From Squalus acanthias (lineage: Eukaryota): a stretch of 64,000 nt of DNA. The stretch spans positions 1-64,000 of the forward strand of contig JASTWF010000328.1 in the NCBI GenBank assembly GCA_030390025.1. Reading direction: 5' to 3'. This document shows, in pieces, positions 5,549 to 61,682 of this stretch. The notes under the pieces are model-generated. The model was given only the letters and a program-made list of their open reading frames with translations, was not told where the DNA came from and did no database searches. Both the position numbers and the translations under genes were made by a program. Each line of letters starts with the position of its first letter. Positions within the stretch are counted from its first letter, which is position 1.

Positions 5549-6661
5549 GTGAACTCACTGGTGTGTCCGCAGGTTGGACGACTGAGTGAATCCCTTCCCA
5601 CACTCGGGGCAGGTGAACGGCCTCTCCCCAGTGTGAATTCGCTGGTGTGTCAGCAGATCCTTTGTGCTTTTAAAGCTCTTCTCACACTCAGAACATTTAA
5701 AAGGTCTCTTATTAGTGTGAACAAGTTGGTGTGTCCGGAAGTTGGATGACTGAGTGAATCTCATCCCACACACAGAGCAGGTGAACGGCCTCTCCCCTGT
5801 GTGAACTCGCTGATGTGTCAACAGGTTGGATGAACGAGTGACTCTCTTCCCACATACGGAGCAAGTGAACGACCTCTCCCCGGGACCGGTGAGCTCGCTG
5901 GTGTGTCAGCAGGTTGGATGAATGAGTGAATCCCTTCCCACATACGGAGCAAGTGAACGACCTCTCCCTGGTGTGAACTCGCTGGTGTTTCAGTAGGTTG
6001 GATGAGTGGGCAAATGTCTTTGCACAGTGAGAGCACCTGAACGGTGTCTCGTCACTGTGAACTCGCTGGTGTGTCAGCAAGTGGTTGGATTCAGAAAATC
6101 CCTTCCCACACAATGAGCAGCTGAATGGCCTCTCCCCAGTGTGAATTTGCTGGTGTTTCAGCAGGTTTGATGATTCTTTGAAAGTCTTCACGCAGTGAGA
6201 GCAACTGAACGGCCTCTCCCCGGTGTGACTGCGTCGATGAGTTTCCAGCTGGGACGGGTAATTGAATCCCTTCCCACAGTCCCCACATTTCCACGGTTTC
6301 TCCGTGGTGCGGGTGTCCTTGTGTCTCTCCAGCTTGGACGATCAGTTGAAGCCTCGTCCACACACAGAACACGTGTATGGTTTCTTCCTGCAGTGAATGA
6401 TGCGACTTTTTTCAGGCTGTGTAACTGGTTAAAGCTCTTTCCACAGTCAGTGCACTGGAACACTCTCACTCGGGTGTGTGTGTCTCAGTGCTTTTCCAGT
6501 CAAACTGATGTCTGAAATCTTTTACCACAGATAAACATTTCTCCTTCCACATTCAAAGGCCGATGATATTCAGGTCCTGATGAATGGAGTGACTCTGTCA
6601 GATCTTGACGTGATGTTTGGTTTGAGTTTGCGGTGTGTAAATGCTGCCCTTCTCACAGCCT
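5549..6661 (-). pseudogene. C2H2 zinc-finger locus A, disrupted (about 9 fingers after the KPWKC start region)
   Basis: HTGERPF-linked fingers split across ORFs 5712-6191 and 5555-5821 (frameshift ~5890). TGA in the last finger. ACG at the family start site. Family acceptor ctccttttacag and family 3' UTR present. Confidence 0.88.
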
Positions 6662-7744: not shown

Positions 7745-8012
7745 GTCATTTCTCCTCCATTTACAGACGCTCCCTGACCAGTCACCATTTCTCCTCCATT
7801 TACAGACGCTCCCTGACCAGTCACCATTTCTCCTCTATTTACAGACGCTCCCTGACCAGTCACCAGTTCTCCTCCATTTACAGACGCTCCCTGACCAGTC
7901 ACCATTTCTCCTCCATTGACAGATGCTCCCTGACCAGTCACCATTACTCTTTCATTTGCAGACGCCCCCTGACCAGTCACCATTTCTCCTCCATTTACAG
8001 ACGCTCCCTGAC
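7745..8012. repeat. 39-bp minisatellite, about 7 copies
   Basis: Unit gtcaccatttctcctccatttacagacgctccctgacca. A single copy sits at the paralogous position ~47600. Confidence 0.92.
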
Positions 8013-8110
8013 TCACTTCCTGTCTGTCCCGGAGTTTGGCGCTTTGTTGAGATTCAGGCCAGAGCGAAACGGGAACCCGCGGGTGGAGGCGGATAATGTT
8101 CACTGATCTC

Positions 8111-8511
8111 ATAATGGGGCCTGGGGCCGCACTCGGGGTGTGTGCAGCCCGCGTCCCCCCGGGGTTTATTAACCCGCTCCCTGAGCTCTCTCACCTGATG
8201 TGTCAGCGGCTGCTGCCAAGGTCCGCGCATGCTCAGCTCACCTTCTGTTGTAACAGGTTTAAAGGTCAAGCCCCGCCCCTCTCACACTCCGATTGGTTGG
8301 AGGACCCGCCGCCCCCTCGGTCCTCCAGGCCCGCCCCGCTCTTCCTATTGGTCCGAGCTCCCGTCAATCACCCGGGCAGTGTGAGCTGAGCATGCGCGGA
8401 CCTTGGCAGCAGCCGCTGACACATCAGGTGAGAGAGCTCAGGGAGCGGGTTAATAAACCCCGGGGGGACGCGGGCTGCACACACCCCGAGTGCGGCCCCA
8501 GGCCCCATTAT
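8111..8511. promoter_or_regulatory. Putative bidirectional promoter for ZNF A(-)/B(+): 131-bp perfect inverted repeats around a 139-bp core
   Basis: 8111-8241 is the exact reverse complement of 8381-8511. Core has inverted CCAAT boxes (gattgg, tattgg), GC boxes and gtcaatca. Each arm has an NRF1-like gcatgcgc, an ATG and a cag|gtgaga donor. Confidence 0.8.
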
Positions 8512-8781
8512 TAAAACACTCAACATTATCCGCTTCACAAACACCCGGGGTGGGCCTCAGGCCCCGAACAACAGCCTCCGGGCCGGGCGTTTGCCCCGAG
8601 CGGGGCGGCAGCTGCGGGGCTTTCTCCCGGTGACAGGCCCGGGTTAACGGCCGCCATCTTGACAGGCTCAGGGGGCAGCAGGGCGCATGCGCGGCCCCCT
8701 TGGCCAGGAACCAGGAGGAGAGAATCTTGGCAATTTCTATCCTGGACTCACAGTCATGGCTTTTGGAAACTCCTTTTACAG

Positions 8782-9890
8782 GCTGTGAGAAGGGCAGCAT
8801 TTACACACCGCAAACTCACACCAAACATCACATCAAGATCTGACAGAGTCACTCCATTCATCAGGACCCGAATATCATCGGCCTCTGAATGTGGAAGGAG
8901 AAATGTTTGTCTGTTCTGTCTGTGGGAAAAGATTTCAAACATCAGTGTGACTGGAAAAGCACCGAGACACACACACCCGAGTGAGAGTGTTCCAGTGCAC
9001 TGACTGTGGAAAGAGCCTTAACCAGTTACACAGCCTGAAAAAACATCGCACCGTTCACAGCGGGGAGAAACCGTACACGTGTTCTGTGTGTGGACGAGGC
9101 TTCAACTGATCGTCCAACCTGGAGAGTCACAATGAATCCCGCACCATGGAAAAACCGTGGAAATGTGGGGACTATGGGAAGGGATTCAGTTCCCCATCGA
9201 AGCTGGAAACTCATCGACACAGTCACATTTACCTGCTCCGTGTGTGGGAAGGGATTCACTCATTCATCCAACCTTCTGAGACACCAGCGAGTTCACACTG
9301 GGGAGAGGCCATTCACCTACTCCGTGTGTGGGAAGAGATTCACTCAGAGATCCAGCTTGCTGATCCACCAGCGAGTTCACACTGGGGAGAGGCCGTTCAC
9401 CTGCTTCATGTGTGGGAAGGGATTCACTCGTTCATCTGAGCTTGTGAAACACCAGCACATTCACACACGAGAGAGGCTGTTCACCTGCTCCGTGTGTAAG
9501 AAAGGATTCACTTGTTCATTCGAGCTTTTGAGACATCAACGCATTCACACTGGAGAGAGGCCATTCACCTGCTCCACGTGTGGGAAGGGATTTAATCGAC
9601 CATCCAAACTTCTGACACACCAGTGCATTCACACTGGAGAGAGGCCGTTCACCTGTTCCGTGTGTGGGAAGGGATTCACTAATTCATCTGATGTTCTGAC
9701 AGACCAGCGAGTTCACACTGGGGAGAGACCGTTCACCTGCTCCATGTGTGGGAAGGGATTCACTTGTTCATCCAGCCTGCTGACACACCAGCGAGTTCAC
9801 ACTGGGGAGAGGGCGTTCACCTGCTCCGTGTGTGGGAAGGGATTCACTCAATCATCCCACCTGCTGAGACACCAGCGAGTTCACAAGTGA
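8782..9890 (+). pseudogene. C2H2 zinc-finger locus B, frameshifted (about 9 fingers)
   Basis: Acceptor ttttacag ends at 8781. TGAs at 8786, 8948 and 9107. Kozak ATG at 9146 (MEKPWKC). A 14-nt linker deletion at ~9226 shifts the frame. Ends HQRVHK*. AATAAA at ~10035. Confidence 0.85.
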
Positions 9891-10890
9891 CAGCAGGGGT
9901 TGGATTCTGCTGTTATTGCTGCTGTTAATCACATCCAGGACTGAACCATGTTCATTCTGACAGTTGGGGTTTATTTCTGCTGAAGTTAATGACCCTATAA
10001 CTGGGCTGGAGTTTAATATTCTGGATATATGTCAAATAAATCAGCTTTGTGTTAAACACATTGTTGTAGATTTTCATCTTTCCCACCTGAGTGTTTAGCA
10101 TCACCTGGCTGGAGCTCAGAAAGGACAATCTGGGGGAGGATCGTACGGCGGGAACAGAACTTCAGCCTGGACACAGTCCTTCAGGGCCACACTGAGAGGG
10201 GCAAACGGCACTTTGGTCTTTCTCGTCTCTTCACTGACAGCAAAGTCCCCGTGTGGGTTAATCTCGAGGCCTGTGAGAAATGTGTCCCAGCCACTCTCTT
10301 CCATGGTTCAGAGCTTCTAGGCACGGAACAGAAGGGTCCTTTACAACTGTGTTTAGAGTCAGGAAGAACAACGGTGAATGCTGGAAACGTGCTGTCAAAT
10401 CAGAGATTGGTGTCAAACTGCGATCTGTTCCTGACTGAAAGTGAAACAGGTTTAAGTTTCCAGTCTAAAGATGACTGTGGTAATTATTCCACAAAGATTT
10501 AACGTGTTTGTCTGACAGTCCTGAGTCTACCATTTTAAGGCAGGTGTTAACCCATTTAAAATAAACCCGTTTAAAATAAATTGGTTGAAGTCTGCATTAA
10601 AATAGCAGACGGAGGAGTTCACAGGAGCCTGTTAACTGCTGGTACAATTATACAACAGACATTTGATCTCCAGATAAAGAAGGACCTGCAGCGTGTTTCC
10701 AGGAACTCCCTGTTTTATTGATGTGTGTGTGTTAGACACCAGGATAACTAAAAACCCGGAACATCCACGGGGTGCAATCCCGACAGTTACTCTGGGATCA
10801 CTCCCGCTGTGGAACTCCAGCACTGACCCTGCTGAAGGTTGTAGGCTCAGGGAGTGGGGCCTCCAGGAGTGGATGGTAAGAAAGCTGGGT
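9890..10890 (+). repeat. Duplicated ZNF 3' UTR and downstream block
   Basis: Highly similar to 40007-41000 and, for the first ~330 bp, to the reverse complement of 60675-60998. Confidence 0.85.
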
Positions 10891-12069: not shown

Positions 12070-13390
12070 GACCCAGGAGCGAGGACAAGCCCAGCAGCGG
12101 GGTCAAGGCCCAGGAGTGGCACGGGCCAACAGTGGGGTCGGGGCCCAGGAGTGGCGCAGCGTGGACCAGCAGCGGGGTCGGGGCCCAGGGAAGGTGCGGC
12201 ACGGGCCAACAGTGAGGTCAAGGCCCAGGAGTGGCGCAGTGTGGACCAGCAGCGAGGTCAAGGCCCAGGAGTGGCGCGGCATGGGCCAACAGTGAGGTCA
12301 AGGCCCAGGAGTGGCGCGGCATGGGCCAACAGTGAGGTCAAGGCCCAGGAGTGGCGCGGCACGAGCCAACAGTGAGGTCAAGGCCCAGGAGTGGCGCGGC
12401 ACGGACCAGCAGCGAGGTCAAGGCCCAGGAGTGGTGCGGCATGGGCCAACAGTGAGGTCAAGGCCCAGGAGTGGTGCGGCATGGGCCAGCAGTGGGGTCG
12501 GGGCCCAGGAGTGGCGCAGTGTGGACCAGCAGTGAGGTCAAGGCCCAGGAGTGGCGCGGCATGGACCAGCAGTGGGGTCGGGGCCCAGGAGTGGCGCAGT
12601 GTGGACCAGCAGTGGGGTCGGGGCCCAGGAGTGGCGCGGCATGGACCAGCAGTGGGGTCGTGGACCAGCAGTGGGGTCGGGGCCCAGGAGTGGCGCAGTG
12701 TGGGCCAGCAGTGGGGTCAAGGCCCAGGAGTGGCGCAGTGTGGGCCAGCAGTGGGGTCGGGGCCCAGGAGTGGCGCAGTGTGGACCAGCAGTGAGGTCGG
12801 GGCCCAGGAGTGGCGCAGTGTGGACCAGCAGTGGGGTCGGGGCCCAGGAGTGGCGCAGTGTGGACCAGCAGTGGGGTCGGGGCCCAGGAGTGGCGCAGTG
12901 TGGGCCAGCAGTGAGGTCAAGGCCCAGGAGTGGCGCAGTGTGGACCAGCAGTGGGGTCGGGGCCCAGGAGTGGCGCAGTGTGGACCAGCAGTGGGGTCGG
13001 GGCCCAGGAGTGGCGCAGTGTGGGCCAGCAGTGGGGTCGGGGCCCAGGAGTGGTGCAGTGTGGACCAGCAGTGGGGTCGGGGCCCAGGAGTGGCGCAGTG
13101 TGGACCAGCAGTGGGGTCGGGGCCCAGGAGTGGCGCAGTGTGGACCAGCAGTGGGGTCGGGGCCCAGGAGTGGCGCAGTGTGGACCAGCAGTGGGGTCGG
13201 GGCCCAGGAGTGGCGCAGTGTGGACCAGCAGTGGGGTCGGGGCCCAGAAGTGGCGCAGTGTGGGCCAGCAGTGGGGTCGGGGCCCAGTGTGGACCAGCAG
13301 TGGGGTCGGGGCCCAGGAGTGGCGCAGTGTGGACCAGCAGTGGGGTCGGGGCCCAGGGAAGGTGCGGCACGGGCCAACAGCGAGGTCGGG
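12070..13390 (+). repeat. 40-bp GC-rich tandem array, about 32 copies
   Basis: Unit ggcccaggagtggcgcagtgtggaccagcagtggggtcgg. Lies just upstream of an RTE ORF start. Confidence 0.95.
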
Positions 13391-13479
13391 AGGACCACAA
13401 TGCATCCTACGAAACCCAGGCAGAGAGGACCTGCGGGAAGGAGGGAGGAGGACAGTAGGAGTATGTTTGTGTGTGTGAG

Positions 13480-13905
13480 CTAGGCCGTTGTAGCAGAGCC
13501 TGGTCTCCAATCGTCTTGGATCCCCTTGCCATTGGACCAAGACCTTGCTCTGTCAAGCCCGTGAGGTAGCTGCTGTGCAACGGCCACCCCACGTTAAAAG
13601 AATTCACGCACAGGCATCTTCCACCCTTTAAAATGAAGTTCGGGACCTGGAATGTCAGGACCCTCATGGACAACCCCAACAGTGACAGACCGGAACGCTG
13701 CACTGCTATCGTTGCCCGGGAGCTCAGACGTTTCTACATTGACATCGCTGCCCTAAGCGAGACCCGGCGGGCAGGGGAAGGCCAGCTCAAGGAGCAAGGC
13801 GGTGGCTACACCTTCTTCTGGAAAGGCAAACCTGAAGAAGAACGCCGCCTCCATGGGGTAGGTTTCGCCATAAAAAATGAACTAGTTGGGCATCTCAGAG
13901 ACTCC
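13480..13905 (+). mobile_element. RTE-clade LINE 5' end (5' UTR and endonuclease N-terminus), 3'-truncated
   Basis: MKFGTWNVRTL...IDIAALSETR...GYTFFWKG...HGVGFAI is a typical RTE APE N-terminus. Breaks at ~13905 into a block shared with 43832-44300. Confidence 0.85.
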
Positions 13906-15046: not shown

Positions 15047-15625
15047 GTTGCGGGTGTCCTTGTGTCTCTCCAGGTTGGACGATCAGTTGAAGCCTCGTCC
15101 ACACACAGAACACGTGTACGGTTTCTCCCCACTGTGAACGGTGCGATGTTTTTTCAGACTGTGTAACTGGTTAAAGCTCTTTCCACAGTCAGTGCACTGG
15201 AACACTCTCACTCGGGTGTGTGTGTCTCGGTGCTTTTCCAGTCACACTGATGTTTGAAATCGTTTCCCACAGACAGAAGAGACAAACATTTCCCCTTCTA
15301 TATTCAAAGGCCGATGATATTCAGGTCCTGATGAATTGAGTGACTCTGAGATTTTAACGTGATGTTTGGTTTGAATTTCCCGTCTGTAAATCCTCCTCTT
15401 CTCACACCCTGTAAAAGGAGTTTACAAAAGTCATCACTGTAATTACAGGATAGAAATTCAGAACAGACAATTCTAGTTTCTATGCAACATTCTTTCCTCT
15501 CTTGTTCCCCCAAAGCTGTAAATCCCCGTCCCACACACTCTCCCTCCTCCCTGTGCTGAAATCATACCATCGCATATCGCCCAACAGTTTGTCCCCCACT
15601 CCCAGTTTTCTCCCTCGACGCTGAT

Positions 15626-16388
15626 GGGTTCAGTTCTACACTCACTGGTTCCCCTCCCTCTCCTCCCCTGAAGGTGCTGACTCTGGCTGGGTTCAGTTCT
15701 ACACTCACTGGTTCCCCTCTCTCTCCTCCCCTGAAGGTGCTGACTCTGGCTGGGTTCAGTTCTACACTCACTGGTTCCCCTCTCTCTCCTCCCCTGAAGG
15801 TGCTGACTCTGGCTGGGTTCAGTTCTACACTCACTGGTTCCCCTCTCTCTCCTCCCCTGAAGGTGCTGACTCTGGCTGGGTTCAGTTCTACACTCACTGG
15901 TTCCCCTCCCTCTCTCCTCCCCTGAAGGTGCTGACTCTGGCTGGGTTCAGTTCTACACTCACTGGTTCCCCTGAAGGTGCTGACTCTGGCTGGGTGCAGT
16001 TCTACACTCACTGGTTCCCCTCCCTCTCTCCTCCTCTGAAGGTGCTGACTCTGGCTGGGTTCAGTTCTACACTCACTGGTTCCTCTCTCTCTCCTCCCCT
16101 GAAGGTGCTGACTCTGGCTGGGTTCAGTTCCACACTCACTGGTTCCCCTCCCTCTCCTCCCCTGAAGGTGCTGACTCTGGCTGGGTTCAGTTCTAGACTC
16201 ACTGGTTCCCCTCCCTCTCCTCCCCTGAAGGTACTGACTCTGGCTGGGTTCAGTTCTACACTCACTGGTTCCCCTCCCTCTCCTCCCCTGAAGGTGCTGA
16301 CTCTGGCTGGGTTCAGTTCTACACTCACTGGTTCCCCTCTCTCTCCTCCTCTGAAGGTGCTGACTCTGGCTGGGTTCTGTTCTACACT
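15626..16388. repeat. 63-bp ZNF-associated minisatellite, about 12 copies
   Basis: Same unit as 6727-6947; period 63 (15731 to 15794). Confidence 0.95.
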
Positions 16389-16391
16389 TGT

Positions 16392-16976
16392 ACAAAAGCA
16401 AAATACTGCGGCAGCTGGAAATCTGAAATAAAACAGAAAATGCTGGAAATACTCAGGACAGCATCTGTGGAGAGAGAAACAGAGTTAACGGTTCAGGTCA
16501 ATGACGTTTCATCAGAACTGTAAAATGTTAGCAATGTAACAGGTTTTAAGATGGACCTCGTGTAGACGAGGGAAGGATGGAAATTGGAAGTAAAGTTGAT
16601 GAAGTTTTCCAGTTCAGGGCGAGAGCAGGAACCGGCACCAATAGTTATCAATGTACCGGAAAAAGAGGTGAGGGAGGGGACCTGACTCGGACTGGAACAA
16701 AGAATGTTCCACATATCCCATGAAAAGGCAGGCATAGCTAGGACACATGCGGGTTCCCATAGCAATGCCTTTATTTGGAGGAAGCGAGTGGAGTCAAAGG
16801 AGAAGTTGTTCAATGTGGGACAAGTTCAGCCAGGTGTAGGAGGCTGGTGGTGGATGGGGACTGGTTGGGCCTCTGTTCAAGGAAGAAGCGGAGCGACCTC
16901 AGGCCGTCCAGGTAGTGGATGGAGGTGTAGAGGGATTGGATGTCCATGGTGAAAAGGAGGAGGAGTGAAAAGGGCC
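16392..16976 (-). mobile_element. Penelope-like element fragment (terminal region and RT piece)
   Basis: Minus strand encodes NNFSFDST-FLQIK and an FFRYID(N) motif typical of PLE RT. Terminal aaaatgctggaaatactcag repeat. Host sequence resumes after the CR1 at ~20957. Confidence 0.7.
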
Positions 16977-30740: not shown

Positions 30741-32080
30741 TCAGGGCAGAGTGAGGTCACTGAGGGATGAAGGAGGCGAGACCGACCCTGACACTGCACA
30801 CTCGCCTCCTTCATCCCTCAGTGACCTAGCCCGACCCTGACTCTCCACTGCACACTCGCCTCCTTCATCCCTCAGTGACCTAGCCCTACCCTGACTCTCC
30901 ACTGCACACTCGCCTCCTTCATCCCTCAGTGACCAAGCCCGACCCTGACTCTCCACTGCACACTCACCTCCTTCATCCCTCACTGACCTAGCCCGACCCT
31001 GACTCTCCACTGCACACTCGCCTCCTTCATCCCTCAGTGACCCAGCCTGACCCTGACTCTCCACTGCACACTCACCTCCTTCATCCCTCAGTGACCTCGC
31101 CCGACCCTGACTCTCCACTGCACACTCGCCTCCTTCATCCCTCAGTGACCTAGCCCGACACTGACTCTCCACTGCACACTCGCCTCCTTCATCCCTCAGT
31201 GACCTAGCCCGACCCTGACTCTCCACTGCACACTCGCCTCCTTCATCCCTCAGTGACCTAGCCCGACCCTGACTCTCCACTGCACACTCGCCTCCTTCAT
31301 CCCTCAGTGACCTAGCCCGACCCTGACTCTCCACTACACACTCGCCTCCTTCATCCCTCAGTGACCTCGCCCGACCCTGACTCTCCACTGCACACTCGCC
31401 TCCTTCATCCCTCAGTGACCTAGCCCGACCCTGACTCTCCACTGCACACTCGCCTCCTTCATCCCTCAGTGACCTACACTGACCCTGACTCTCCACTGCA
31501 CACTCGCCTCCTTCATCCCTCAGTGACCTAGCCCGACCCTGACTCTCCACTGCACACTCGCCTTCTTCATCCCTCAGTGACCTCGCCCGACCCTGACTCT
31601 CCACTGCACACTCGCCTCCTTCATCCCTCAGTGACCTAGCCCGACCCTGACTCTCCACTGCACACTCGCCTCCTTCATCCCTCAGTGACCTACACTGACC
31701 CTGACTCTCCACTGCACACTCGCCTCCTTCATCCCTCAGTGACCTAGCCCGACCCTGACTCTCCACTGCACACTCGCCTTCTTCATCCCTCAGTGACCTA
31801 CACTGACCCTGACTCTCCACTGCACACTCGCCTCCTTCATCCCTCAGTGACCTAGCCCGACCCTGACTCTACACTGCACACTCGCCTCCTTCATCCCTCA
31901 GTGACCTAGCCCTACCCTGACTCTCCACTGCACACTCGCCTCCTTCATCCCTCAGTAACCTGGCCCTACCCTGACTCTCCACTGCACACTCGCCTCCTTC
32001 ATCCCTCAGTGACCCAGCCCTACACTGACTCCCCACTGCACACTCGCCTCCTTCATCCTTCAGTGACCTAGCCCTACCCT
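30741..32080. repeat. 54-bp minisatellite, about 24 copies, preceded by an inverted partial copy
   Basis: Unit ccctgactctccactgcacactcgcctccttcatccctcagtgacctagcccga. 30741-30780 is the reverse complement of part of the unit. Confidence 0.95.
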
Positions 32081-33110: not shown

Positions 33111-33980
33111 CCTTTGTAGGTCTTTTTGTTGCTTCAGTTTGAGCTGGAGTGGAGATGGAGGAGAAGCTTCTGGGTTTAACCCCCAGTACTTCTGAGCCCA
33201 GGAGGACCCAACAATTTCCAATGTGAGACTGTCAAGGGAGGTGGATTCTGGGGGAGATTAGGTTGTTAAACAGACACTGTCCCTACAATGTAAAAGAGTA
33301 TTGTTTTAGGAACAAGTATTTCTCTAGAGGCTTTTAATCTATTTTACACATACAGATTTTTTTCATTCATTCTTGGGATCTGGGCGTCACGGGCAAGGCC
33401 AGCATATGTTGCCAATCGCCAGTTTCCCGTTGAGAAGGTGATGGTGGGCCTTCGTCATGAACCACTGCAGTCCGTGTGGTGAAGGTACTGACTTAGAGGG
33501 GAACTGGCAGGTGGTGATGTTCCCATACACCTGCTGCCCTCGTCCTTCTAGGTGGTGGAGTTCGCGGGTTTTGGAGGTTCTGTCAAAGTTCAGGTCGAGT
33601 TGCAGATGTATAAAGTCCCTTTCTTTTGACCCTTCCACGCGTCCCGCCCCCCCCCCCCCACGACAACCTCTCTCTCTCCTCCCATAGAGGCTAGAGTCAT
33701 GTGTAGGCCCAGACTGTGTGGCGGATTCCCTTCTCTGAAGGACATTAGTGAACCAGTTGGGTTTTTATGGCAATCCAGCAGCTTTCATGGTCACTTTTTT
33801 CTAATGACCAGATTCATTGAGCTCAATTTCACAACCTGCCTTTGTTTTTTTGTGGGTTCTCTCTCATGCTCCCTTTTTCCTGTTTTAAATTCATTTTACA
33901 GGATATTAGAAGAGGAGGATTAGCAGACGGGAAGCTCAAACCAAACATCGCATCAAGACCTGACGAAGTCACTCGATTCA

Positions 33981-34483
33981 CGGAGAGTGAGGAGACTCAG
34001 ATCAAACTGTCAGGACGGAGTGAGGAGACTCAGTTCAAACTGCCACAGGACGGAGAGTGAGGAGACTCAGAACAAACTGCCACAGGACGGAGAGTGAGGA
34101 GACTCAGAACAAACTGCCACAGGACGGAGAGTGAGGAGACTCAGAACAAACTGCCACAGGACGGAGAGTGAGGAGACTCAGTTCAAACTGCCACAGGACG
34201 GAGAGTGAGGAGACTCAGATCAAACTGCCACAGGACGGAGAGTGAGGAGACTCAGAACAAACTGCCACAGGACGGAGAGTGAGGAGACTCAGTTCAAACT
34301 GCCACAGGACGGAGTGAGGAGACTCAGTTCAAACTGCCACAGGACGGAGAGTGAAGAGACTCAGAACAAACTGCCACAGGACAGAGTGAGGAGACTCAGA
34401 ACAAACTGTCAGGATGGAGTGAGGAGACTCAGATCAAACTGCCACAGGACGGAGAGTGAAGAGACTCATATCAAACTGTCACA
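33981..34483 (+). repeat. 37-bp tandem monomers at the CR1 5' end, about 13-14 copies
   Basis: Unit ggagagtgaggagactcagaacaaactgccacaggac. Confidence 0.93.
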
Positions 34484-34550
34484 GAAGTGTATTGTTTTAA
34501 TTTAAATTAATTAAAGGGTAAATAATAATAAATTTAATTAATTACATAGA

Positions 34551-35507
34551 ATGGGAGAGCAGGTGATGTGTTACTGCTGCAATATGTGGGAGCTGGAGGA
34601 CACCATTGATGTTCACGATGATCACATTTGCAGTAAGTGTTGGCTGCTCGAGGAACTCCGGCTCCGTGTTGATGAGCTGGAGTCCGAGCTTCAAACACTG
34701 CGACACATCAGGGAGGGGGAGAGTTACCTGGACTCTGTGTTCCAGGAGGTAGTCACACCAATTAGATTAACTAATTCAGATGTAGCCCATGATCAGGGAC
34801 AGGAGGGTGTGACTACGAGTGAGGCAGGTACGGGGATCCAGGAGGTAGTGTTGGAGGAGCCGCAGCCCTTGCTCTTGTCCAACAGGTTCGAGGCTCTTAC
34901 TCCCTGTGAGGATGGGAGCAGGGACTGCAGGGAGGATGAGCAACCTGGCCACAGCACTGTGGTACGGGGAGCCATTCAAATGGGGGGAGTAAAAAGAAAT
35001 GTTGTAGTGGTAGGGGATAGTATCATTAAGGGGATAGATAGGGTTCTTTGCAGCCGAGAGCGAGAGTCCCGAAGGCTATGTTGCCTGCCCGGTGCCAGGG
35101 TTAAGGACATCTCCTCTGGGCTGGAGAGAAACTTGGAGTGGGAGGGGGAAGATCCAGTTGTCGTGGTCCATGTTGGTACCAATGACATAGATAGGACAAG
35201 GAATGAGGTTCTGCTGAGGGAGTATGAGCAGCTAGGGGCCAAATTAAAAAAAAGAACCTCTAGGGTAGTAATCTCTGGATTACTACCTGAGCCACGAGCA
35301 AATTTGGCTAGGGTAAATAAAATCAGAGGGTTAAATGCGTGGCTCAAAGACTGGTGTGGGAGAAATGGGTTTTGCTACCTGGGACACTGGCACCAGTACT
35401 GGGACAGGAGAGAGCTGTTCCGTTGGGACGGACTTCACTTGGCCAGTGCTGGGACTAGAGTCCTGGCGAATCGAATAACTAGGGCTGTAGAGAGGGCTTT
35501 AAACTAA
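34551..35507 (+). CDS. CR1 ORF1p (N-terminal Cys/His motif, coiled coil, SGNH esterase)
   Basis: CxxC...HxCxxC, a leucine heptad, and VVVGDS, CLPGA, HVGTND and DGLHL esterase blocks; 318 aa. Confidence 0.92.
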   Translation: MGEQVMCYCCNMWELEDTIDVHDDHICSKCWLLEELRLRVDELESELQTLRHIREGESYLDSVFQEVVTPIRLTNSDVAHDQGQEGVTTSEAGTGIQEVVLEEPQPLLLSNRFEALTPCEDGSRDCREDEQPGHSTVVRGAIQMGGVKRNVVVVGDSIIKGIDRVLCSRERESRRLCCLPGARVKDISSGLERNLEWEGEDPVVVVHVGTNDIDRTRNEVLLREYEQLGAKLKKRTSRVVISGLLPEPRANLARVNKIRGLNAWLKDWCGRNGFCYLGHWHQYWDRRELFRWDGLHLASAGTRVLANRITRAVERALN

Positions 35508-35545
35508 TTAGTGGGGGGGAGGTTTCAAGAGAGCAAAAAATAAAA

Positions 35546-38497
35546 ATGTCAGCGGAGAAGGCAATAGAGCAAAGTAGCAGTGGGGTAATTAAAAACCAGA
35601 GCGTGTCAGGAAGGGACAGAATATATAAAGATAAAGGTAAAGTAGTAAAGGGGGTAAAAGCAGGAAAAAATTGTCACAAAACATATTTAAAAGTTCTTTA
35701 TCTGAATGCACGCAGCATTCGTAACAAAATAGACGAATTGACGGTACAAATAACTACGTATGGGTATGATCTTGTGGCCATTACAGAAACATGGCTGCAG
35801 GGTGACAACGACTGGGAATTAAATATGCCAGGGTATTTAACAATCAGGAAGGACAGACAGGAAGGAAGAGGGGGTGGGGTAGCTATGTTAATAAAGGAAG
35901 GAATCACTGTATTACAGAGAAATGATATTGGGTCAAAGGATCAGGATAATGAAACAGTTTGGGTGGAGATAAGGAATAATAAAGGGAAAAAAACACTAGT
36001 GGGAGTAGTATATAGGCCTCCTAATAGTTGCAACTCTGCTGGAAGAAGTATTAATCAGGAAATAGTTGGGGCATGTAATAAGGGAACAGCTATAATTATA
36101 GGGGATTTTAACTATCATATTAACTGGACAAATCAAATTGGGCAGGGCAGCCTTGAGGAAGAGTTTATTGAGTGTATTAGGGATGGATTTCTTGAGCAGT
36201 ATGTAACTGATCCTACAAGGGGGCAAGCAACCTTGGACCTGGTCCTGTGTAATGAGTCAGGATTAATTAATAATGTCCTAGTTAAGGATCCCCTTGGAAT
36301 GAGTGACCATAACATGGTTGAATTCCATATCCAATTAGAGGGTGAGAAGGTTGGTTCTCAGACAAGCGTACTGAGCTTGAATAAAGGAGACTATGATGGT
36401 ATGAGAGCGGAATTGATTAAAGTGGACTGGGAAAATAGATTAAAGGGTAAGACGGTACATGAGCAGTGGTGTTCATTTAAGGAGTTATTTTACAACTTTC
36501 AAAAAAAATATATTCCACTGAGGAAAAAAGGGTGTAAAAGAAATGACAGCCATCCGTGGCTAAGTAAAGAAATTAAGGATAGTATCCAACTAAAAACAAG
36601 GACATATAAGGTAGCCAAACTTAGTGGGAGGATAGAAGATTGGGAAGTCTTCAAAAGACAGCAAAAAGTAACTAAAGGATTGATTAAGAAAGGTAAGATA
36701 GATTATGAAAATAAATTAGCAAAAAATATAAAAACAGATAGCAAGAGTTTCTATAGTTATATAAAAAGAAAAAGGGTGGCTAAGGCAAACGTAGGTCCCT
36801 TAGAGGATGAGACCGGGAAATTAATGGTGGGAAACATGGAGATGGCAAAAATGCTGAACAAATATTTTGTTTCAGTCTTTACGGTAGAGGACACTAAGAA
36901 TATCCCAACACTGGACAAACAGGGGGCTCTAGGGGGGGAGGAGCTAAATACGATTAAAATCACTAAGGAATTGGTACTCAGTAAAATAATAGGACTCAAG
37001 GCGGATAAATCCCCTGGACCTGATGGCTTACATCCTAGGGTCTTGAGGGAAGTGGCAATAGGGATTGTGGATGCTTTGGTAATAATTTTCCAAAATTCCC
37101 TGGAATCAGCAAAGGTCCCGGCAGATTGGAAAACTGCTAATGTAACACCCTTATTTAAAAAGGGTAGTAGGCAGAAAGCTGGAAATTATAGACCAGTTAG
37201 TCTAACATCTGTGGTGGGTAAAATTTTGGAGTCTATTATTAAGGAGACAGTAACGGAACATTTAGATAAACATAATTTGATAGGACAAAGTCAGCATGGC
37301 TTTATGAAGGGGAAATCATGTCTGACAAATTTGCTTGAGTTCTTTGAGGACATAACGTACAGGGTGGATAAAGGGGAACCAATGGACGTAGTGTATTTAG
37401 ACTTCCAGAAGGCATTCGACAAGGTGCCACATAAAAGATTATTGCTCAAGATAAAAAATCACTGGATTGGGGGTAATATTCTGGCATGGGTGGAGGATTG
37501 GTTATCTAACAGGAAGCAGAGAGTTGGGATAAATGGTTCATTCTCGGACTGGCAACCAGTAGCCAGTGGTGTTCCGCAGGGGTCGGTGCTGGGTCCCCAA
37601 CTCTTTACAATCTATATTAACGATTTGGAGGAGGGGACCGAGTGTAACATATCAAAGTTTGCAGATGATACAAAGATGGGAGGGAAAGTAGAAAGTGAGG
37701 AGGACATAAAAAACCTACAAGGGGATATAGACAAGCTGGGTGAGTGGGCAGAGATTTGGCAGATGCAATACAATATTGGAAAATGTGAGGTTATGCACTT
37801 TGGCAGGAAAAATCAGAGAGCAAGTTATTATCTTAATGGCGAGAAACTGGAAAGTACTGCAGTACAAAGGGATCTGGGGGTCCTAGTGCAAGAAAATCAA
37901 AAAGTTAGTATACAGGTGCAGCAGGTGATCAAGAAGGCCAACGGAATGTTGGCTTTTATTGCTAGGGGGATAGATTATAAAAACAGGGAGGTATTGCTGC
38001 AGTTATATAAGGTATTGGTGAGACCGCATCTGGAATACTGCATACAGTTTTGGTGTCCATACTTAAGAAAAGACATACTTGCTCTCGAGGCAGTACAAAG
38101 AAGGTTCACTCAGTTAATCCCCGGGATGAGGGGGTGGACATATGAGGAGAGGTTGAGTAGATTGGGACTCTACTCATTGGAGTTCAGAAGAATGAGAGGC
38201 GATCTTATTGAAACATATAAGATTGTGAAGGGGCTTGATCGGGTGGATGCGGTAAGGATGTTCCCAAGGATGGGTGAAACTAGAACTAGGGGGCATAATC
38301 TTAGAATAAGGGGCTGCTCTTTCAAAACTGAGATGAGGAGAAACTTCTTCACTCAGAGGGTAGTAGGTCTGTGGAATTTGCTGCCCCAGGAAGCTGTGGA
38401 AGCTACATCATTAAATAAATTTAAAACAGAAATAGACAGTTTCCTAGAAGTAAAGGGAATTAGGGGTTACGGGGAGCGGGCAGGAAATTGGACATGA
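35546..38497 (+). CDS. CR1 ORF2p (APE endonuclease and reverse transcriptase)
   Basis: 983-aa uninterrupted ORF with [42 protein letters not shown] and FADD. Confidence 0.96.
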   Translation: MSAEKAIEQSSSGVIKNQSVSGRDRIYKDKGKVVKGVKAGKNCHKTYLKVLYLNARSIRNKIDELTVQITTYGYDLVAITETWLQGDNDWELNMPGYLTIRKDRQEGRGGGVAMLIKEGITVLQRNDIGSKDQDNETVWVEIRNNKGKKTLVGVVYRPPNSCNSAGRSINQEIVGACNKGTAIIIGDFNYHINWTNQIGQGSLEEEFIECIRDGFLEQYVTDPTRGQATLDLVLCNESGLINNVLVKDPLGMSDHNMVEFHIQLEGEKVGSQTSVLSLNKGDYDGMRAELIKVDWENRLKGKTVHEQWCSFKELFYNFQKKYIPLRKKGCKRNDSHPWLSKEIKDSIQLKTRTYKVAKLSGRIEDWEVFKRQQKVTKGLIKKGKIDYENKLAKNIKTDSKSFYSYIKRKRVAKANVGPLEDETGKLMVGNMEMAKMLNKYFVSVFTVEDTKNIPTLDKQGALGGEELNTIKITKELVLSKIIGLKADKSPGPDGLHPRVLREVAIGIVDALVIIFQNSLESAKVPADWKTANVTPLFKKGSRQKAGNYRPVSLTSVVGKILESIIKETVTEHLDKHNLIGQSQHGFMKGKSCLTNLLEFFEDITYRVDKGEPMDVVYLDFQKAFDKVPHKRLLLKIKNHWIGGNILAWVEDWLSNRKQRVGINGSFSDWQPVASGVPQGSVLGPQLFTIYINDLEEGTECNISKFADDTKMGGKVESEEDIKNLQGDIDKLGEWAEIWQMQYNIGKCEVMHFGRKNQRASYYLNGEKLESTAVQRDLGVLVQENQKVSIQVQQVIKKANGMLAFIARGIDYKNREVLLQLYKVLVRPHLEYCIQFWCPYLRKDILALEAVQRRFTQLIPGMRGWTYEERLSRLGLYSLEFRRMRGDLIETYKIVKGLDRVDAVRMFPRMGETRTRGHNLRIRGCSFKTEMRRNFFTQRVVGLWNLLPQEAVEATSLNKFKTEIDSFLEVKGIRGYGERAGNWT

Positions 38498-41304
38498 GGC
38501 TGAGTTCGGATCGGTCGAGGCCCTGTGGGTGGCGTAGCGGGCCCAGGGGCTGAGTAGCCGGGTCCTGCTCCTACTTCTTGTGTTCTTTAGATTTGAGGTG
38601 AGGATCAGATCAGCCATGATCTTATTGAATGGCGGAGCAGGCTCGAAGGGCCGATTGGCCTACTCCTGCTCCTATTTCTTATGTTCTTATGTTCTTATGA
38701 TTCATCGGACCTCAATATCATCGGCCTTTGAACGCGGAAGCAAAAAGCACCGTTCACAGCGGGGAGAAACCGTACACGTGTTGTGTGTGTGGTCGAGAAT
38801 TCAGCCGATCCTGTGGCCTGTCGAGACACAAGCGCAGTAACACCGGGGAGAAACGGTGTAAATGTGGGGATTGTGGGAAAGGATTCAAATATCCGTCTAA
38901 GCTGGAAACTCAACGGTGCAATCACACCGGGGAGAGGCCGTTCACCTGCTCTGTCTGTGGCAAGAGATGCACTTATTTCTCTGCCCTGCTGATACATCAG
39001 TGGGTTCACACTAACGAGAGAGAGTTTAAATGCATCAAGTGGGAGAAGAGCTTTAAACGCCCTGAGACACTGATAGAGCACCAGCACATTCACAGCGGTT
39101 ACACATTGTTCAACTGCTCTCACTGTGGGAAGAGGTTCAGGGCATCATCGCACGAGTTCACAGCAGTGAGATGCCGTTCACCTGCTCCATGTGTGGGAAG
39201 GGATTCACTAATTCATCCACCCTGCTGACACACCAACTTGTTCACACTGGGGAGAGGCCGTTCACCTGCTCCGTGTGTGGGAAGGGATTCACTCAGTCAT
39301 CTGCCCTGCTGACACACCGGCGAGTTCACACTGGGGAGAGGCCGTTCACCTGCTCCGTGTGTGGGAAGGGATTCACTCAGTCATCCCACCTGCTAACACA
39401 CCAACTTGTTCACACTGATAAGAGACCTTTTAAATGTTCTGATTGTGAGAAGAGATTTAAAAGCAGAAGTGATCTGCTGAGACACCAGCGTAGTAACTCT
39501 GGGGCGAGACCCTTCACCTGTTCCGAGTGTGGGAAAGGATTTATTAATTCATCCACTCTGCTGAAGCACTGGCGAGTTCACACTGACGAGAGACCTTTTA
39601 AATGCCCGGACTGTGGGAAGTGCTATAAAAGTTCCGGGGAACTGACATGCCATCAAACTGTTCACACTGACGAAAGACCGTTCAGCTGCTCTCACTGTGG
39701 GACTGGGTTCAGGCGGTCATCTGAACTCACTGTACACCAGCGCACCCACACTGGGGAGAGGCCGTTCACCTGCTCCGTGTGTGGGAAGGGATTCATTCGG
39801 TCATCAAACCTGCTGAGACACCAGCGAGTTCACTCTGATGATAAACCTTTTACATGTTCTGACTGTGAGAAGAGATTTAAAAGCAAAAAGGATCTGCTGG
39901 GACACCAGCGAGTTCACACTGGGCAGAGGCCGTTCACCTGCCCCGTGTGTGGGAAGGGATTCATTCGGAAATCCAACCTGCTGAGACACCATCAAGTTCA
40001 CAAGTGACTGCAGGGGTTGGATTCTGCTGTTGTTGCTGCTGTTAATCACATCCAGGACTGAACCATGTTCATTCTGACAGTTGGGGTTTGTTTCTGCTGA
40101 TGTTAATAACTCCTGTAACTGGGCTGGAGTTTAATATTCTGGATAGATGTCAAATAAACCAGCTTTGTTTTAAACACATTGTTGTAGATTTTCGTCTTTC
40201 CCACCTGAGTGTTTAGCATCACCTGGCTGGAGCTCAGAAAGGACAATCTGGGGGAGGATCGTACGGCGGGAACAGAACTTCAGCCTGGACACAGTCCTTC
40301 AGGGCCACACTGAGAGGGGCAAACGGCACTTTGGTCTTTCTCATCTCTCAGCCCGGACAGCAAAGTCGCCGTGCGGGTTAATCTTGAGGCCTGTAAGAAA
40401 TGTGTCCCAGCCGCTCTCTTCCATGGTTCAGAGCTCCTAGGCACGGAACAGAAGGCTCCTTTACAACTGTGTTTAGAGTCAGGAAGAACAACGGTGAATG
40501 CTGGAAACGTGCTGTCAAATCAGAGATTGGTGTCAAACTGCGATCTGTTCCTGACTGAAAGTGAAACAGCAGGTTTAAGTTTCCAGTCTATGAAGATTTA
40601 ACGTGTTTGTGTGACAGTCCTGAGTCTACCATTTTAAGGCAGGCATTAACTCATTTAAAATAAACCCGTTTAAAATAAATTAGTTAAAGTCCATATTAAA
40701 ATAGCAGACGGAGGAGTTCACAGGAGCCTGTTAACTGCTGGTACAATTATACAACAGACATTTGATCTCCAGATAAAGAAGGACCTGCAGCGTGTTTCCA
40801 GGAATTCCCTGTTTTATTGATGTGTGTGTGTTAGACACCAGGATAACTAAAAATACACGACCTGGAACAGCCACGGGAGTGCGATCCCGACAGTTACTCT
40901 GGGATCACTCCCGCTGCGGAACTCCACCACTGACCCTGCTGAAGGTTGTAGGCTCAGGGAGTGGGGCCTCCAGGAGTGGACGGTAAGAAAGCTGGGTTTC
41001 AGTATCCTGACAAATATACACCAAGGGACCAGAGGAATCCTTACTGAGGAACCGTCTGGGGTTTTAACTGCCAGCATAGGTCTCGGGGTGAATGATTCCT
41101 GACTCCCCGAACTGTCTTACATTGAACCCAGTTCAGATCAAGGTGAGTTCAGTTTACAGGAGAATAGGGACAAATATCACCCACAATTGAGGGAGTCAAA
41201 AGCAGCCATTAGAGAAGCTAAGAGATATTTGGAAAAGAAGATGCTGCACCATTGTGGTAATAATAGTAAAAGCTTTTCCAGCTGTGTCAGGAGTCAGAAG
41301 ACAT

Positions 41305-44244: not shown

Positions 44245-45068
44245 TCAGTCCTGGATGTGATTAACAGCAGCGACAGCAGAATCCAACCCCTGCAGCCACT
44301 TGTGAACTCGCTGATGTTTCAGCAGGCTGGACGATGGAGAGAAACCCTTCTCACACATGGAGCAGGTGAACGGCCTCTCCCCAGTGTGAACTCGGTGGTG
44401 TGTTAAGCAGGTGGGATGACTGAGTGAATTCCTTCCCACACACGGAGCAGGTGAACGGCCTCTCCCCAGTGTGAACTCGCTGGTGTAGAATGAGGTTGGA
44501 TGACTGCTTGAATCTCTTCCCACAGTGAGTGCAGCTGAATGGTCTCTCGTCAGTGTGAACTCACTGATGTGTCTGGAGAATGGACGAGCGAGTGAATCCC
44601 TTCCCATACACGGAGCAGGTGAATGGCCTCTCCCCAGTGTGACTGTGTCGATGAGTTTCCAGTTGGAATGGGTAATGGAATCCCTTCCCACAGTCCCCAC
44701 ATTTCCACGGTTTCTCCATGGTGCGGGTGTCCTTGTGTCTCTCCAGGTTGGACGATCAGTTGAAGCCTCGTCCACACACAACACATGTACGGTTTCTCCC
44801 CGCTGTGAATGGTGCGATGTTTTTTCAGGCTGTGTAACTGGTTAAAGCTCTTTCCACAGTCAGTGCACTGGAACACTCTCACTCGGGTGTGTGTGTCTCG
44901 GTGCTTTTCCAGTCACTCTGATGTTTGATATTTTTTGCCACAGGCAAACATTTCACCTTCCACATTCAGATGATATTCAGGTCCTGATGAATGGAGTGAC
45001 TCTGTCAGATCTTGATGTGATGTTTGGTTTGAGTTTGCGGTGTGTAAATGCTGCCCTTCTCACAGCCT
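44245..45068 (-). pseudogene. C2H2 zinc-finger locus F (5 fingers, frameshifted)
   Basis: ATG at 44719. +1 frameshift ~44405. Usual stop changed to TGG. Upstream TGAs at 44913 and 44756. Truncated promoter remnant at 45150-45245. Confidence 0.82.
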
Positions 45069-46903: not shown

Positions 46904-47258
46904 GGTGCAGGTGACCTTATGTATGTCCAGGTTGGACAATCCGTTGAAGCCTCGTCCACACACAACACGTATACGGTTTCTCCCCACTGTGAATGGTGCG
47001 ATGTTACTCCAGGCTGTGTAACTGGTTAAAGCTCTTTCCACAGTCAGCGCTCTGGAACACTCTCACTCGGGTGTGTGTGTGTCTCGGTGCTTTTCCAGTC
47101 ACACTGATGTTTGAAATCTTTTCCCACAGACAGAACAGACAAAAATTTCTCCTTCCACATTCAAATGCCGATGATATTCAGGTCCTGATGAATTGAGTGA
47201 CTCTGTCAGATCTTGATGTGATGTTTGGTTTGAGTTTCCCGTCTCTAAATCCTCCCCT

Positions 47259-48041: not shown

Positions 48042-48392
48042 AAAAACATCGCACCATTCACAGCGGGGAGAAACCGTGCACGTGTTCTGTGTGTGGACGA
48101 GGCTTCAACTGATCGTCCAACCTGGAGAAACACAAGGACACCCGCACCATGGAGAAACCGTGGAAATGTGGGGACTGTGGGAAGGGATCCACTTAGCCGA
48201 CCCAGCTGCAAAATCATTGGCGCAGTCACACTGTTCACCTGCTCCGAGTGTGGGAAGGGATTCACTCACTCATCCAACCTGTTGACACACCGGCGAGTTC
48301 ACACTGGGGAGAGGCCGTGCACCTGCCAAGTGCGTCAGAAGGGATTCGCTCGGTCATCCCACCTGCTGAGACACCAGCGAGTTCACAAGTGA
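48000..48392 (+). pseudogene. Truncated zinc-finger locus H
   Basis: The promoter arm is fused by deletion to finger sequence at ~48041. TGA at 48110. 11-nt linker deletion at ~48234. Ends HQRVHK*. Confidence 0.75.
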
Positions 48393-54090: not shown

Positions 54091-54680
54091 AACTGAACCC
54101 AACCAGAGTAGAGGGAGGGAGAAAACTGGGAGTGGAGGAAAGAAATGTTGGAGATGGTGCGATGGGTTTGGATTTCAGCACAGGGAGGAGGGAGAGTGTG
54201 TGGGACGGGGATTTACAGCTTTGGGGGAACAAGAGAGGAAAGAATGTTCCATAGAAACTAGAATTGTCTGTTCTGAATTTCTATCCTGTACTTACAGTGA
54301 TGACTTTTGTAAACTCCTTTTATAGGGTGTGAGAAGGGCAGGATTTACAGATGGGAAACTCAAACCAAACATCACAACAAGATCTGACAGAGTCACTCAA
54401 TTCATCAGGACCTGAATATCATCGGTCTTTGAATGTGGAAGGAGGAATGTTTGTCTGTGGGAAAAGATTTCAAACATCAGTGTGACTGGTAAAGCACCGA
54501 GACACACACACCCGAGTGAGAGTGTTCCAGTGCACTGACTGTGGAAAGAGCTTTAACCAGTTACACAGCCTGAAAAAACATCGCACCGTTCACAGCGGGG
54601 AGAAACCGTACACGTGTACTGTGTGTGGACGAGGCTTCAACTGATCGTTCAACCTGGAGAGACACAAGGACACCCACACC

Positions 54681-55523
54681 ACGGAGAAACTGTGGAAATG
54701 TGGGGACTGTGGGAAGGGATTCAATTACCCATCCATGCTGGAAACTCATCGGCGCAGTCACACCGGGGAGAGGCCGTTCTTCTGCTCCGTGTGTGGGAAG
54801 GGATTCGCAGAGTTATCCAAGCTCCAGATACACCAGCGAGTTCACACTGGGGAGAGGCCGTTCGCGTGTATTGAATGTGGGAAGGGATTCACTCAGTCAT
54901 CCAGCCTCCATAGACACCAGCGAGTTCACACTGGGGAGAAACCGTTCTCCTGCTCCGTGTGTGGGAAGGGATTCGCAGAGTTATCCAAGCTCCAGATACA
55001 CCAGAGAGTTCACACTGGCGAGAGGCCGTTCGCGTGTATTGAATGTGGGAAGGGATTCACTCAGTTATACCATCTCCAGATACACCAGCGAGTTCACACT
55101 GGGGAGAGGCCATTCACCTGCTCTATGTGTGGGAAGGGATTCACTCAGTCATCCCATCTTCTGACACACCAACTTGTTCACACTGTTAAGAGACCATTTA
55201 GATGTTCTGACTGTGAGAAGAGCTTTAAAAGCACAAGCGACCTGCTGACCCACCAACGCACTCACACTGGGGAGAGACCATTCCCCTGCTGTGTGTGTGG
55301 TAAGGGATTCACTCAGTCATGCACGATGCTGAGACATCAGCGAGTTCACACTGAGGAGCGATCTTTCACCCGCTCTTATTGTGGGAAGGTTTTCACTTGG
55401 AAGTCTAACCTGCTTAATCACCAGCGAGTTCACACTGGGGAGAGGCCGTTCACCTGCTCCGTGTGTGGGAAGGGATTCACTCAGTCATGCACTCTGCTGA
55501 GACACCAGCGAGTTCACCAGTGA
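54681..55523 (+). CDS. C2H2 zinc-finger protein J (9 intact and 1 degenerate finger; ACG at 54681, first ATG at 54735)
   Basis: Open frame to HQRVHQ*. Acceptor at 54325. Upstream TGAs at 54330, 54483 and 54642. Family 3' UTR with aataaa at ~55669. Confidence 0.78.
   Translation, partial: TEKLWKCGDCGKGFNYPSMLETHRRSHTGERPFFCSVCGKGFAELSKLQIHQRVHTGERPFACIECGKGFTQSSSLHRHQRVHTGEKPFSCSVCGKGFAELSKLQIHQRVHTGERPFACIECGKGFTQLYHLQIHQRVHTGERPFTCSMCGKGFTQSSHLLTHQLVHTVKRPFRCSDCEKSFKSTSDLLTHQRTHTGERPFPCCVCGKGFTQSCTMLRHQRVHTEERSFTRSYCGKVFTWKSNLLNHQRVHTGERPFTCSVCGKGFTQSCTLLRHQRVHQ

Positions 55524-60998: not shown

Positions 60999-61682
<684 letters not shown>

Follow-up and report, generated by a model that had tools for sequence, protein, structure and literature searches.

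Shared in-frame TGA codons in a zinc-finger gene family of Squalus acanthias are very probably old disabling mutations in fingers no longer evolving as protein

The window analysed here, a 64-kb stretch of Squalus acanthias DNA (contig JASTWF010000328.1, positions 1 to 64,000), holds about a dozen C2H2 zinc-finger units lying among LINE fragments and minisatellites. Each unit consists of a short predicted exon 1, an intron and one exon that contains a 40-codon linker, fingers (codons 41-121), a finger array and a conserved 3′ end; codons are numbered from the exon-2 acceptor, with codon 1 of unit B at 8783 and the array running from codon 122. The arrays are made of five or more C2H2 fingers joined by TGEKP-type linkers, as in tandem poly-C2H2 expansions. 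The paralogs are many and clustered (1913 exact 30-mer matches in the genome, the 100 matches listed being mostly on contig C29), and the nearest named relatives sharing the linker and the first finger are proteins of the sharks Heterodontus and Scyliorhinus. In the literature searched, from which subscription journals are mostly absent, no paper on this shark family was found. KRAB, SCAN and BTB domains gave no Pfam match in any of four translated stretches, and the N-terminal KRAB on an exon of its own that marks KRAB-ZNF genes was not found, exon 1 of unit B being 47 bases long and out of frame. Long minisatellite arrays lie between units at 12376-13480, 15470-16480 and 30741-31868. Exon 2 of unit E (33903-38701) is split by a near full-length LINE with ORFs at 34542-35507 and 35483-38497 (1004 codons open), which we take from its translation to be of the CR1/L2 type.

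All features of unit B lie on the forward strand. A non-coding exon 1 is predicted at 8381-8427, with an uncertain 5′ end and, in the spliced model, the donor CAG/GTGAGA after position 8427; a uATG at 8392 would open an 85-codon out-of-frame uORF once the exon is spliced. This exon sits in one arm of an inverted repeat (8086-8241 / 8381-8536; 156 bases, 96% alike), which flanks a promoter-like core between the divergent units A and B and gives both units the same predicted exon 1. The predicted intron (8428-8781) ends in the TTTTACAG acceptor common to all unit types. Exon 2 opens with a non-coding linker (8782-8902) that has many stops and frameshifts and a dN/dS of 0.85. In the codon table, the linker carries a TGA at 8786-8788, found in one third of the copies, and a GTG at 8891-8893 where open sister subfamilies have ATG.

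Three dead fingers follow. The first (8903-8986) is recognized by Pfam as part of a zf-C2H2 stretch when its stop is read as X; it starts with an in-frame ATG (codon 41), which opens a 15-codon uORF that ends at the first TGA (8948-8950, helix position +3, followed by the Leu codon CTG). An out-of-frame uORF of 31 codons spans 8889-8984. Dead finger 2 (8987-9070) has no shared stop and no in-frame start, and evolves neutrally. Dead finger 3 (9071-9145), defined by alignment and dN/dS, lacks its second His and contains the second TGA (9107-9109, helix position -1) as well as a CTG in strong context (codon 113, 9119-9121). The constrained array starts at codon 122, which in unit B is ATG (9146-9148); it replaces the Gly codon of a TGEKP linker and reads ACG in two thirds of the family. 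The frame of this family ATG breaks in unit B after one finger (97 aa) and is out of frame with most of the array. The ORF of unit B (9132-9890) uses a copy-specific ATG at 9132 (a second one is at 9174) in frame with the array, and encodes 252 aa with six canonical fingers and no KRAB, SCAN or BTB match. AUG rescues resembling that of unit B are seen in L140 and L213, where a deletion brings the out-of-frame AUG in KPWKC into frame, and in L046 and L281, which have a new AUG five codons upstream.

The preliminary description had reported two TGA codons recurring at the same finger positions throughout the window copies, and the positions hold. The first TGA is present in seven of seven copies, at 8948-8950 and 54483 on the forward strand and at 6502-6500, 15244-15242, 44915-44913, 47101-47099 and 61515-61513 on the reverse strand. 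The second is present in seven of eight, at 9107, 48110 and 54642 (forward) and 6344, 15085, 44758 and 61356 (reverse), copy G having GGA at 46942 (reverse); the CGA described at this site in units D and I (23788, 48795) and E (about 38806) was also confirmed. Both TGAs are thus carried by copies A (6342-6502, with the second TGA at 6344-6342), C (15083-15244), F (44756-44915) and K (61354-61515), all on the reverse strand, and by copy J (54483-54683, forward); copy G (46940-47101, reverse) has the first and copy H (48110-48151, forward), whose leader is truncated, the second. Leader frameshifts were found in the four copies named earlier: A (-1, codon 88), C (-2, codon 20), F (-2, codon 101) and G (+2, codon 62; -2, codon 101). 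The third TGA, said to follow the acceptor, is present in six of seven window copies; it is not family-wide, as this codon is TGA in 54 and TTA in 64 of 165 sampled copies. The codon at the array head, a point missed by the earlier reader, is ATG in four of eight window copies (B; F, at 44719; G; H, at 48149), ACG in A (6305), C and J (54681), and ACA in K. The array is broken in F, frameshifted in K, open for 280 codons in J and has nine intact fingers in G; in C it has eight intact fingers and no in-frame Met.

That the TGAs are subfamily-wide is borne out by exact-flank matches in the genome, which read TGA in 1913 of 1957 cases at the first site and in 1227 of 1469 at the second. The other 44 matches at the first site are TGG (16), TGC (3), TAA (10), TCA (7), TTA (2), CGA (2) and AGA (4), so that 34 are sense codons and only 10 are stops. 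At the second site, 242 matches carry CGA, AGA or GGA; CGA accounts for 94 of the 100 listed and is present in about 15% of copies. None of the 24 sequencing runs in which the sequence was located is recorded as RNA. Contigs of such runs, used for alleles only, show no difference at the first site among the best-supported differences in eight runs, while at the second site C makes up 3-26% of the depth in contigs of four runs (organisms D-G). Since these contigs carry the same alleles, the TGAs are common to several organisms. The leader deviates from the family consensus by a median of 2.5%; judged from the sequences, the sharing of the TGAs is therefore a matter of descent and not of chance.

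Sister subfamilies in sharks, whose products start with MEAK or MEGK (units D, E and I of the window; P0040, P0070 and P0121 of Scyliorhinus and Heterodontus), have the same acceptor, linker, array and 3′ end as the TGA subfamily. In D, E and I, the third finger is homologous to that of the TGA subfamily and has Arg (CGA) at helix position -1. In contrast to the TGA subfamily, the sister subfamilies still have an ATG in the linker but no dead fingers 1 and 2, of which only the tail STVHSGEKP is left, and for this reason they are open from the linker on. Codon 37 of the linker is GTG in 131 of 165 copies of the TGA subfamily and ATG in sister units of the same clusters.

The preliminary description had held that three ancestral fingers most likely became a 5′ leader with uORFs before the family was amplified, and had proposed dN/dS and indel-frame analysis of the paralogs. 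We aligned 165 distinct units from the window and from fetched loci; 140 were used on the tree, 23 poorly aligned or insertion-bearing units and two duplicates having been dropped. Tree-based dN/dS by mutation class was 1.03 for codons 41-109, 0.97 for codons 110-121 and 0.56 for the first array finger. In 35 close pairs (nine of 44, diverging by more than 8%, were excluded), dN/dS was 1.2 for the leader and 0.53 for the array, and frameshifting and in-frame indels stood at 15:0 in the leader versus 14:32 in the array. Copy-private changes gave 1.05-1.31 for leaders and 0.50-0.58 for arrays. Thus, the upstream fingers are neutral on the tree, in the pairs and by indel frame, and the earlier proposal is supported by these values together with two exon-2 uATGs whose uORFs end at or near the first TGA. 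Its uORF part stands only in that both uATGs are in the consensus; the peptides that they open evolve without selection (dN/dS 0.95 and 1.28), not as a functional peptide uORF would, and so no uORF function is shown. All six leader frames are neutral (dN/dS 0.93-1.24), and no coding was detected by six-frame dN/dS in the other leader frames or on the other strand.

Further stops or frameshifts are present in the leaders of 57 of the 127 copies with a 3′ end (13 of 140 without one were left out of this count); the remaining 70 leaders are free of them. Of 80 intact arrays headed by ATG or ACG, 38 lie behind a leader with such further breaks and 42 behind a break-free one. Disablements number 104 in 31.6 kb of leader versus 89 in 107 kb of array, about four times fewer in the array, and zinc ligands are lost at 3-5% in the leader versus 0.5-0.8% in the array. 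The base-contacting positions of the dead fingers are uniform (entropy 0.11-0.95 bits), and those of the first array finger vary (1.6-2.2 bits at -1, +3 and +6); a framework under purifying selection with diversity at these helix positions is seen in the array only. We conclude that the three front fingers show no sign of selection as protein, and that the array downstream is under purifying selection, with a dN/dS of about 0.5.

These results bear directly on programmed readthrough of both TGAs from the codon-41 ATG, which would yield an extended isoform containing three additional fingers. In the 70 break-free copies, nothing but the TGAs interrupts the finger frame, and TGA alleles also dominate in the contigs of other organisms. 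UGA-CUR is a known leaky stop context. A 1993 paper by Li and Rice, cited in PMC7089771, is said, by its title, to trace readthrough in Sindbis virus to the single base C after UGA. The first TGA likewise has a C next to it, and UGA then CUG at this site resembles Sindbis-type readthrough. The leaky context that the preliminary description saw here is probably inherited, since this C is the first base of the conserved Leu codon at helix position +4, and the second TGA is followed by T (UGA-UCG). Unlike Sindbis-type UGA-C readthrough, there is no coding selection past the stop, the frame is not conserved, no unusual downstream structure is predicted and two stops stand in series; two leaky stops in series would multiply to a very small yield. 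The dN/dS near 1, which the preliminary description itself had named as speaking against readthrough, was obtained by all three methods, and frameshifted leaders lie ahead of intact arrays. Among 123 database hits of 220-2000 aa, no relative above 51% identity carries these fingers, and three candidates of 50-161 aa yielded one hit, of the sister type. The leader RNA is predicted to fold no more stably than shuffled sequences (z -0.85). We consider readthrough very improbable.

Recoding of the TGAs as selenocysteine, or their editing to UGG, might be suggested by both shared stops being TGA and by the 16 genomic copies with TGG at the first site. The two sites are at helix positions +3 and -1 and are not Cys ligands, and Rfam found no SECIS element in 7900-10800 (E <= 5), where its only matches were two chance snoRNA hits. 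As to editing, the best-supported differences in contigs of the eight runs include no A>G change at 8950 or 9109, and most TGG copies differ from TGA copies by 3-7% and have other breaks. The neutral evolution of the fingers speaks against both mechanisms, whose probability we regard as minimal. In short, readthrough, selenocysteine and editing are unsupported because the fingers are neutral, the leaders are broken, sense codons have replaced the first TGA more often than TAA has, and there is no SECIS.

Splicing-out of the TGA region was also considered and rejected: no GT..AG joint was seen among the best 15 of 161 and the best 15 of 86 contig joints. In the Heterodontus gene model P0050, the linker is joined directly to a point just ahead of MEKPW, perhaps an artefact of modelling. 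One run contig begins to match at the acceptor and is preceded there by 106 letters of different sequence, a pattern expected of a spliced transcript; we do not take this as proof. In contigs of run X13, the linker end (8903/8904) is joined to a sequence resembling the exon-2 start of another unit, and these joints look as if a donor at the codon-41 uATG could splice between neighbouring units.

We propose that the TGAs are old disabling mutations in fingers that have ceased to evolve as protein. These fingers would make up the untranslated leader in a gene family of about two thousand copies, of which the non-ATG copies are likely translated poorly or not at all, their arrays being kept by conversion. 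We hold this explanation to be highly probable. One observation argues against a pure scar, which does not predict it: of all parts of the unit, the dead leader has diverged least, at 2.5% versus 4.4-8% for the linker, the 3′ UTR and the intron end. The leader might instead be kept as a DNA or RNA element, a regulatory site or a translation brake on the family, with the TGAs mattering as uORF stops. Low leader divergence, the scarcity of fixed differences between 8890 and 9130 in the organism D-G contigs, private synonymous changes two to three times rarer in leaders (those without indels only) than in arrays, and the two uATGs of the consensus are in line with such an element. Against it, sense codons outnumber TAA among the replacements of the first TGA (34 vs 10), the codon-41 uATG has been changed or lost in 33 of the 165 copies, there is no Rfam match and no stable fold, and leader substitution rates are near the synonymous rates of the adjacent half finger. 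Low divergence is what homogenisation of a segment confined to the TGA subfamily would give, and it is partly due to ascertainment, copies having been picked by leader motifs; the two together can suffice to account for it. An element of this kind seems unlikely to us.

In close pairs, leader divergence (0.022-0.027) is near the synonymous divergence of arrays (0.021-0.038). Of 24 pairs with near-identical leaders, 15 have unlike arrays; conversely, of 84 array sisters, 20 carry unlike start codons and 31 fall outside the closest 5% by leader. From these sequence comparisons, gene conversion is evident in the family, and leader and array are partly uncoupled.

With disabled front fingers, a start codon is needed past the second TGA, and about two thirds of the copies have no ATG there. 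At codon 122, 1673 genome matches comprise 514 ATG, 1099 ACG and 60 with another last base, 55 of them ACA. A start at ACG was first suggested because ACG arrays are intact well above the expectation from leader decay, some of them without any Met: in that count, 42 of 65 were intact versus 12 expected at the leader decay rate, 17 of the 42 lacking Met. Under one common rule, with all 60 non-ATG/ACG copies fetched and 20 of 181 sites dropped for want of a 3′ end, arrays are intact in 32 of 45 ACA, 42 of 70 ACG and 26 of 40 ATG copies (Fisher p 0.24 and 0.69). ACG as a required start is thus weakened by the ACA copies, which are intact as often, with dN/dS 0.50-0.58. These form clades (25 of 29 have an ACA sister), 12 ACA pairs give a dN/dS of 0.55 (CI 0.33-0.76), and decay is lower in their arrays than in the leaders of the same copies (p 7e-6). 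Since ACA copies are intact as often, and in clades, with such a pair dN/dS, the array-head codon does not decide the fate of the array. Of the signs of an exclusive ACG start, a constrained frame without an upstream AUG was found, and release of the frame from selection upon loss of the codon was not.

ATG copies trend toward stronger constraint, not significantly: disablements per kb are 0.65 versus 0.89-0.92 in the others (p = 0.20), and pair dN/dS is 0.31 versus 0.51-0.55 (not significant). Private-change dN/dS is the same in all start-codon classes and amounts to 0.38-0.47 in 48 non-ATG arrays without any Met; under a tenth of the family was sampled, and donor-derived and new changes are pooled in the array counts. 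A test on the rarer alleles, with few synonymous events, gave 0.83 for ACA (CI 0.54-5.3) and 0.49 for ACG (CI 0.29-1.06). As ATG copies are not measurably more intact than others, we only infer that conversion keeps the non-ATG arrays tidy. Decay on either strand of the CpG at this codon should be equally frequent, yet ATG (514) is nine times as common as ACA (55), an excess that indicates selection for ATG or an old ATG lineage.

A different possibility starts from the same dead leader and has nearly all copies translated from two mutually backing near-cognate codons, CUG at codon 113 (AAC CUG G) and ACG at codon 122 (ACC ACG G), with CpG decay of ACG to ATG turning a copy up. Both codons lie in the finger frame beyond the second TGA and have an A at -3 and a G at +4, and CUG and ACG in good context initiate at about 1-10% of AUG (PMC9789052). 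An AUG ORF covering 80% of the fingers is available in only three of 60 ACG and three of 36 ACA copies, and there is none in 18 and 15, respectively. The Met-less arrays with their purifying patterns (17 of 42 intact ACG arrays; private dN/dS 0.38-0.47) also favour such starts, as does the single frameshift event in codons 113-121, versus about four expected from the leader, a difference that is not significant. The same source describes exclusive non-AUG starts at ACG in TRPV6 and at CUG in POLG (PMC9789052), which the shark ACG and CUG resemble in that their context is strong and a constrained frame follows. Unlike in TRPV6 and POLG, the shark codon is variable, and ATG, ACG and ACA copies keep the array equally well. 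Each codon appears dispensable: ACA copies lack ACG and are intact (32 of 45, with their clades and dN/dS as above), and of ten non-ATG copies with another codon 113, seven are intact, as are two of three lacking both codons (several of one clade). Further, other leader CpGs decay no more often than ACG changes to ACA (55 per 1099), and AAC CTG is an ordinary finger motif. Near-cognate starts are a tentative possibility. More doubtful still is the bolder claim built on them, namely that over 1000 shark zinc-finger genes are translated without AUG, a dead leader with two uORFs feeding redundant CUG and ACG starts at low output per copy, and ACG-to-ATG decay acting as a heritable up-switch. In our view, a reservoir of arrays kept by conversion appears somewhat ahead of redundant weak starts.

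If the TGAs are indeed old scars, the history of the subfamily may be pictured as follows. In a founder, the linker ATG would have been lost (it is now GTG) and the first TGA gained from TGG or CGA; being near-fixed, the first TGA was probably in the founder. The second TGA would have arisen by CpG decay of the Arg codon at helix position -1, never becoming fully fixed, and the Gly codon of the next TGEKP linker would have been replaced by ATG or ACG. Since second-site TGA, like CGA, is paired with both ATG and ACG (52, 46, 11 and 7 copies), the second TGA was reshuffled or recurred. Scanning ribosomes would pass or translate the two short uORFs and then start at the array-head ATG in the third of copies that have one. 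Copies without ATG would likely be translated poorly or not at all, their arrays being maintained by gene conversion with working copies and by new duplication of these, perhaps aided by weak near-cognate starts.

Several copies may preserve steps of this history. The divergent copy L003 (C130, near 923,560) has TGG, CAA and a normal TGEKP linker, with one frameshift remaining, and looks ancestral or recombinant; two more divergent copies with CGA at both sites show the open form. Most of the other TGG copies look like reversions. In a clade of five copies (L060, L208, L255, L020 and L067, on C29, C178 and C2142), the first array finger has a stop and a frameshift and is followed by 15-22 fingers, and in three of them an open frame of 447-643 codons starts at an ATG 121 bases further along; this clade may represent a second round of a front finger becoming leader. 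A recurrent insertion at linker codons 14-15 (SNQQQQLTFI or SNQTTTYLYI) parts exon 2 from the acceptor in many copies (L014, L036, L039, L041, L054, L068 and others). In several intact arrays (L110, L181, L204, L214, L100, L024 and L101), the terminal TGA is gone and the frame extends through 18 codons of 3′ UTR to end in AVNHIQD.

By analogy, the shark family may work like other lineage-specific tandem zinc-finger expansions. Such tandem poly-C2H2 families include the tetrapod KRAB-ZNFs and the cyprinid FiNZ-ZNFs (Wells et al. 2023, PMC10547256), and the shark family resembles them in having hundreds to thousands of young clustered paralogs, two exons with the array in the last, and varied base-contacting residues. 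In that paper, the 28-residue FiNZ domain on the upstream exon is called unique to cyprinids, and sharks are not mentioned in the main text. Unlike in the KRAB-ZNF and FiNZ-ZNF families, the shark exon 1 and linker look non-coding, three dead fingers lie ahead of the array, and most copies have no ATG at the array head. In zebrafish, tandem fingers are described as stalling ribosomes (PMC11620358), which is not used as evidence here.

The TGAs are thus most likely ordinary scars of a disabled front end carried through amplification, and a stop common to many paralogs is no evidence of recoding. What could matter is the AUG-less majority with constrained arrays: of about 2000 zinc-finger genes without an effector domain, about two thirds are invisible to AUG-based annotation and yet have selected-looking arrays. 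If the non-ATG copies are translated, the family would be a very large case of non-AUG initiation; if they are not, it would be a conversion-kept reservoir of DNA-binding arrays that may be switched on by one CpG change.
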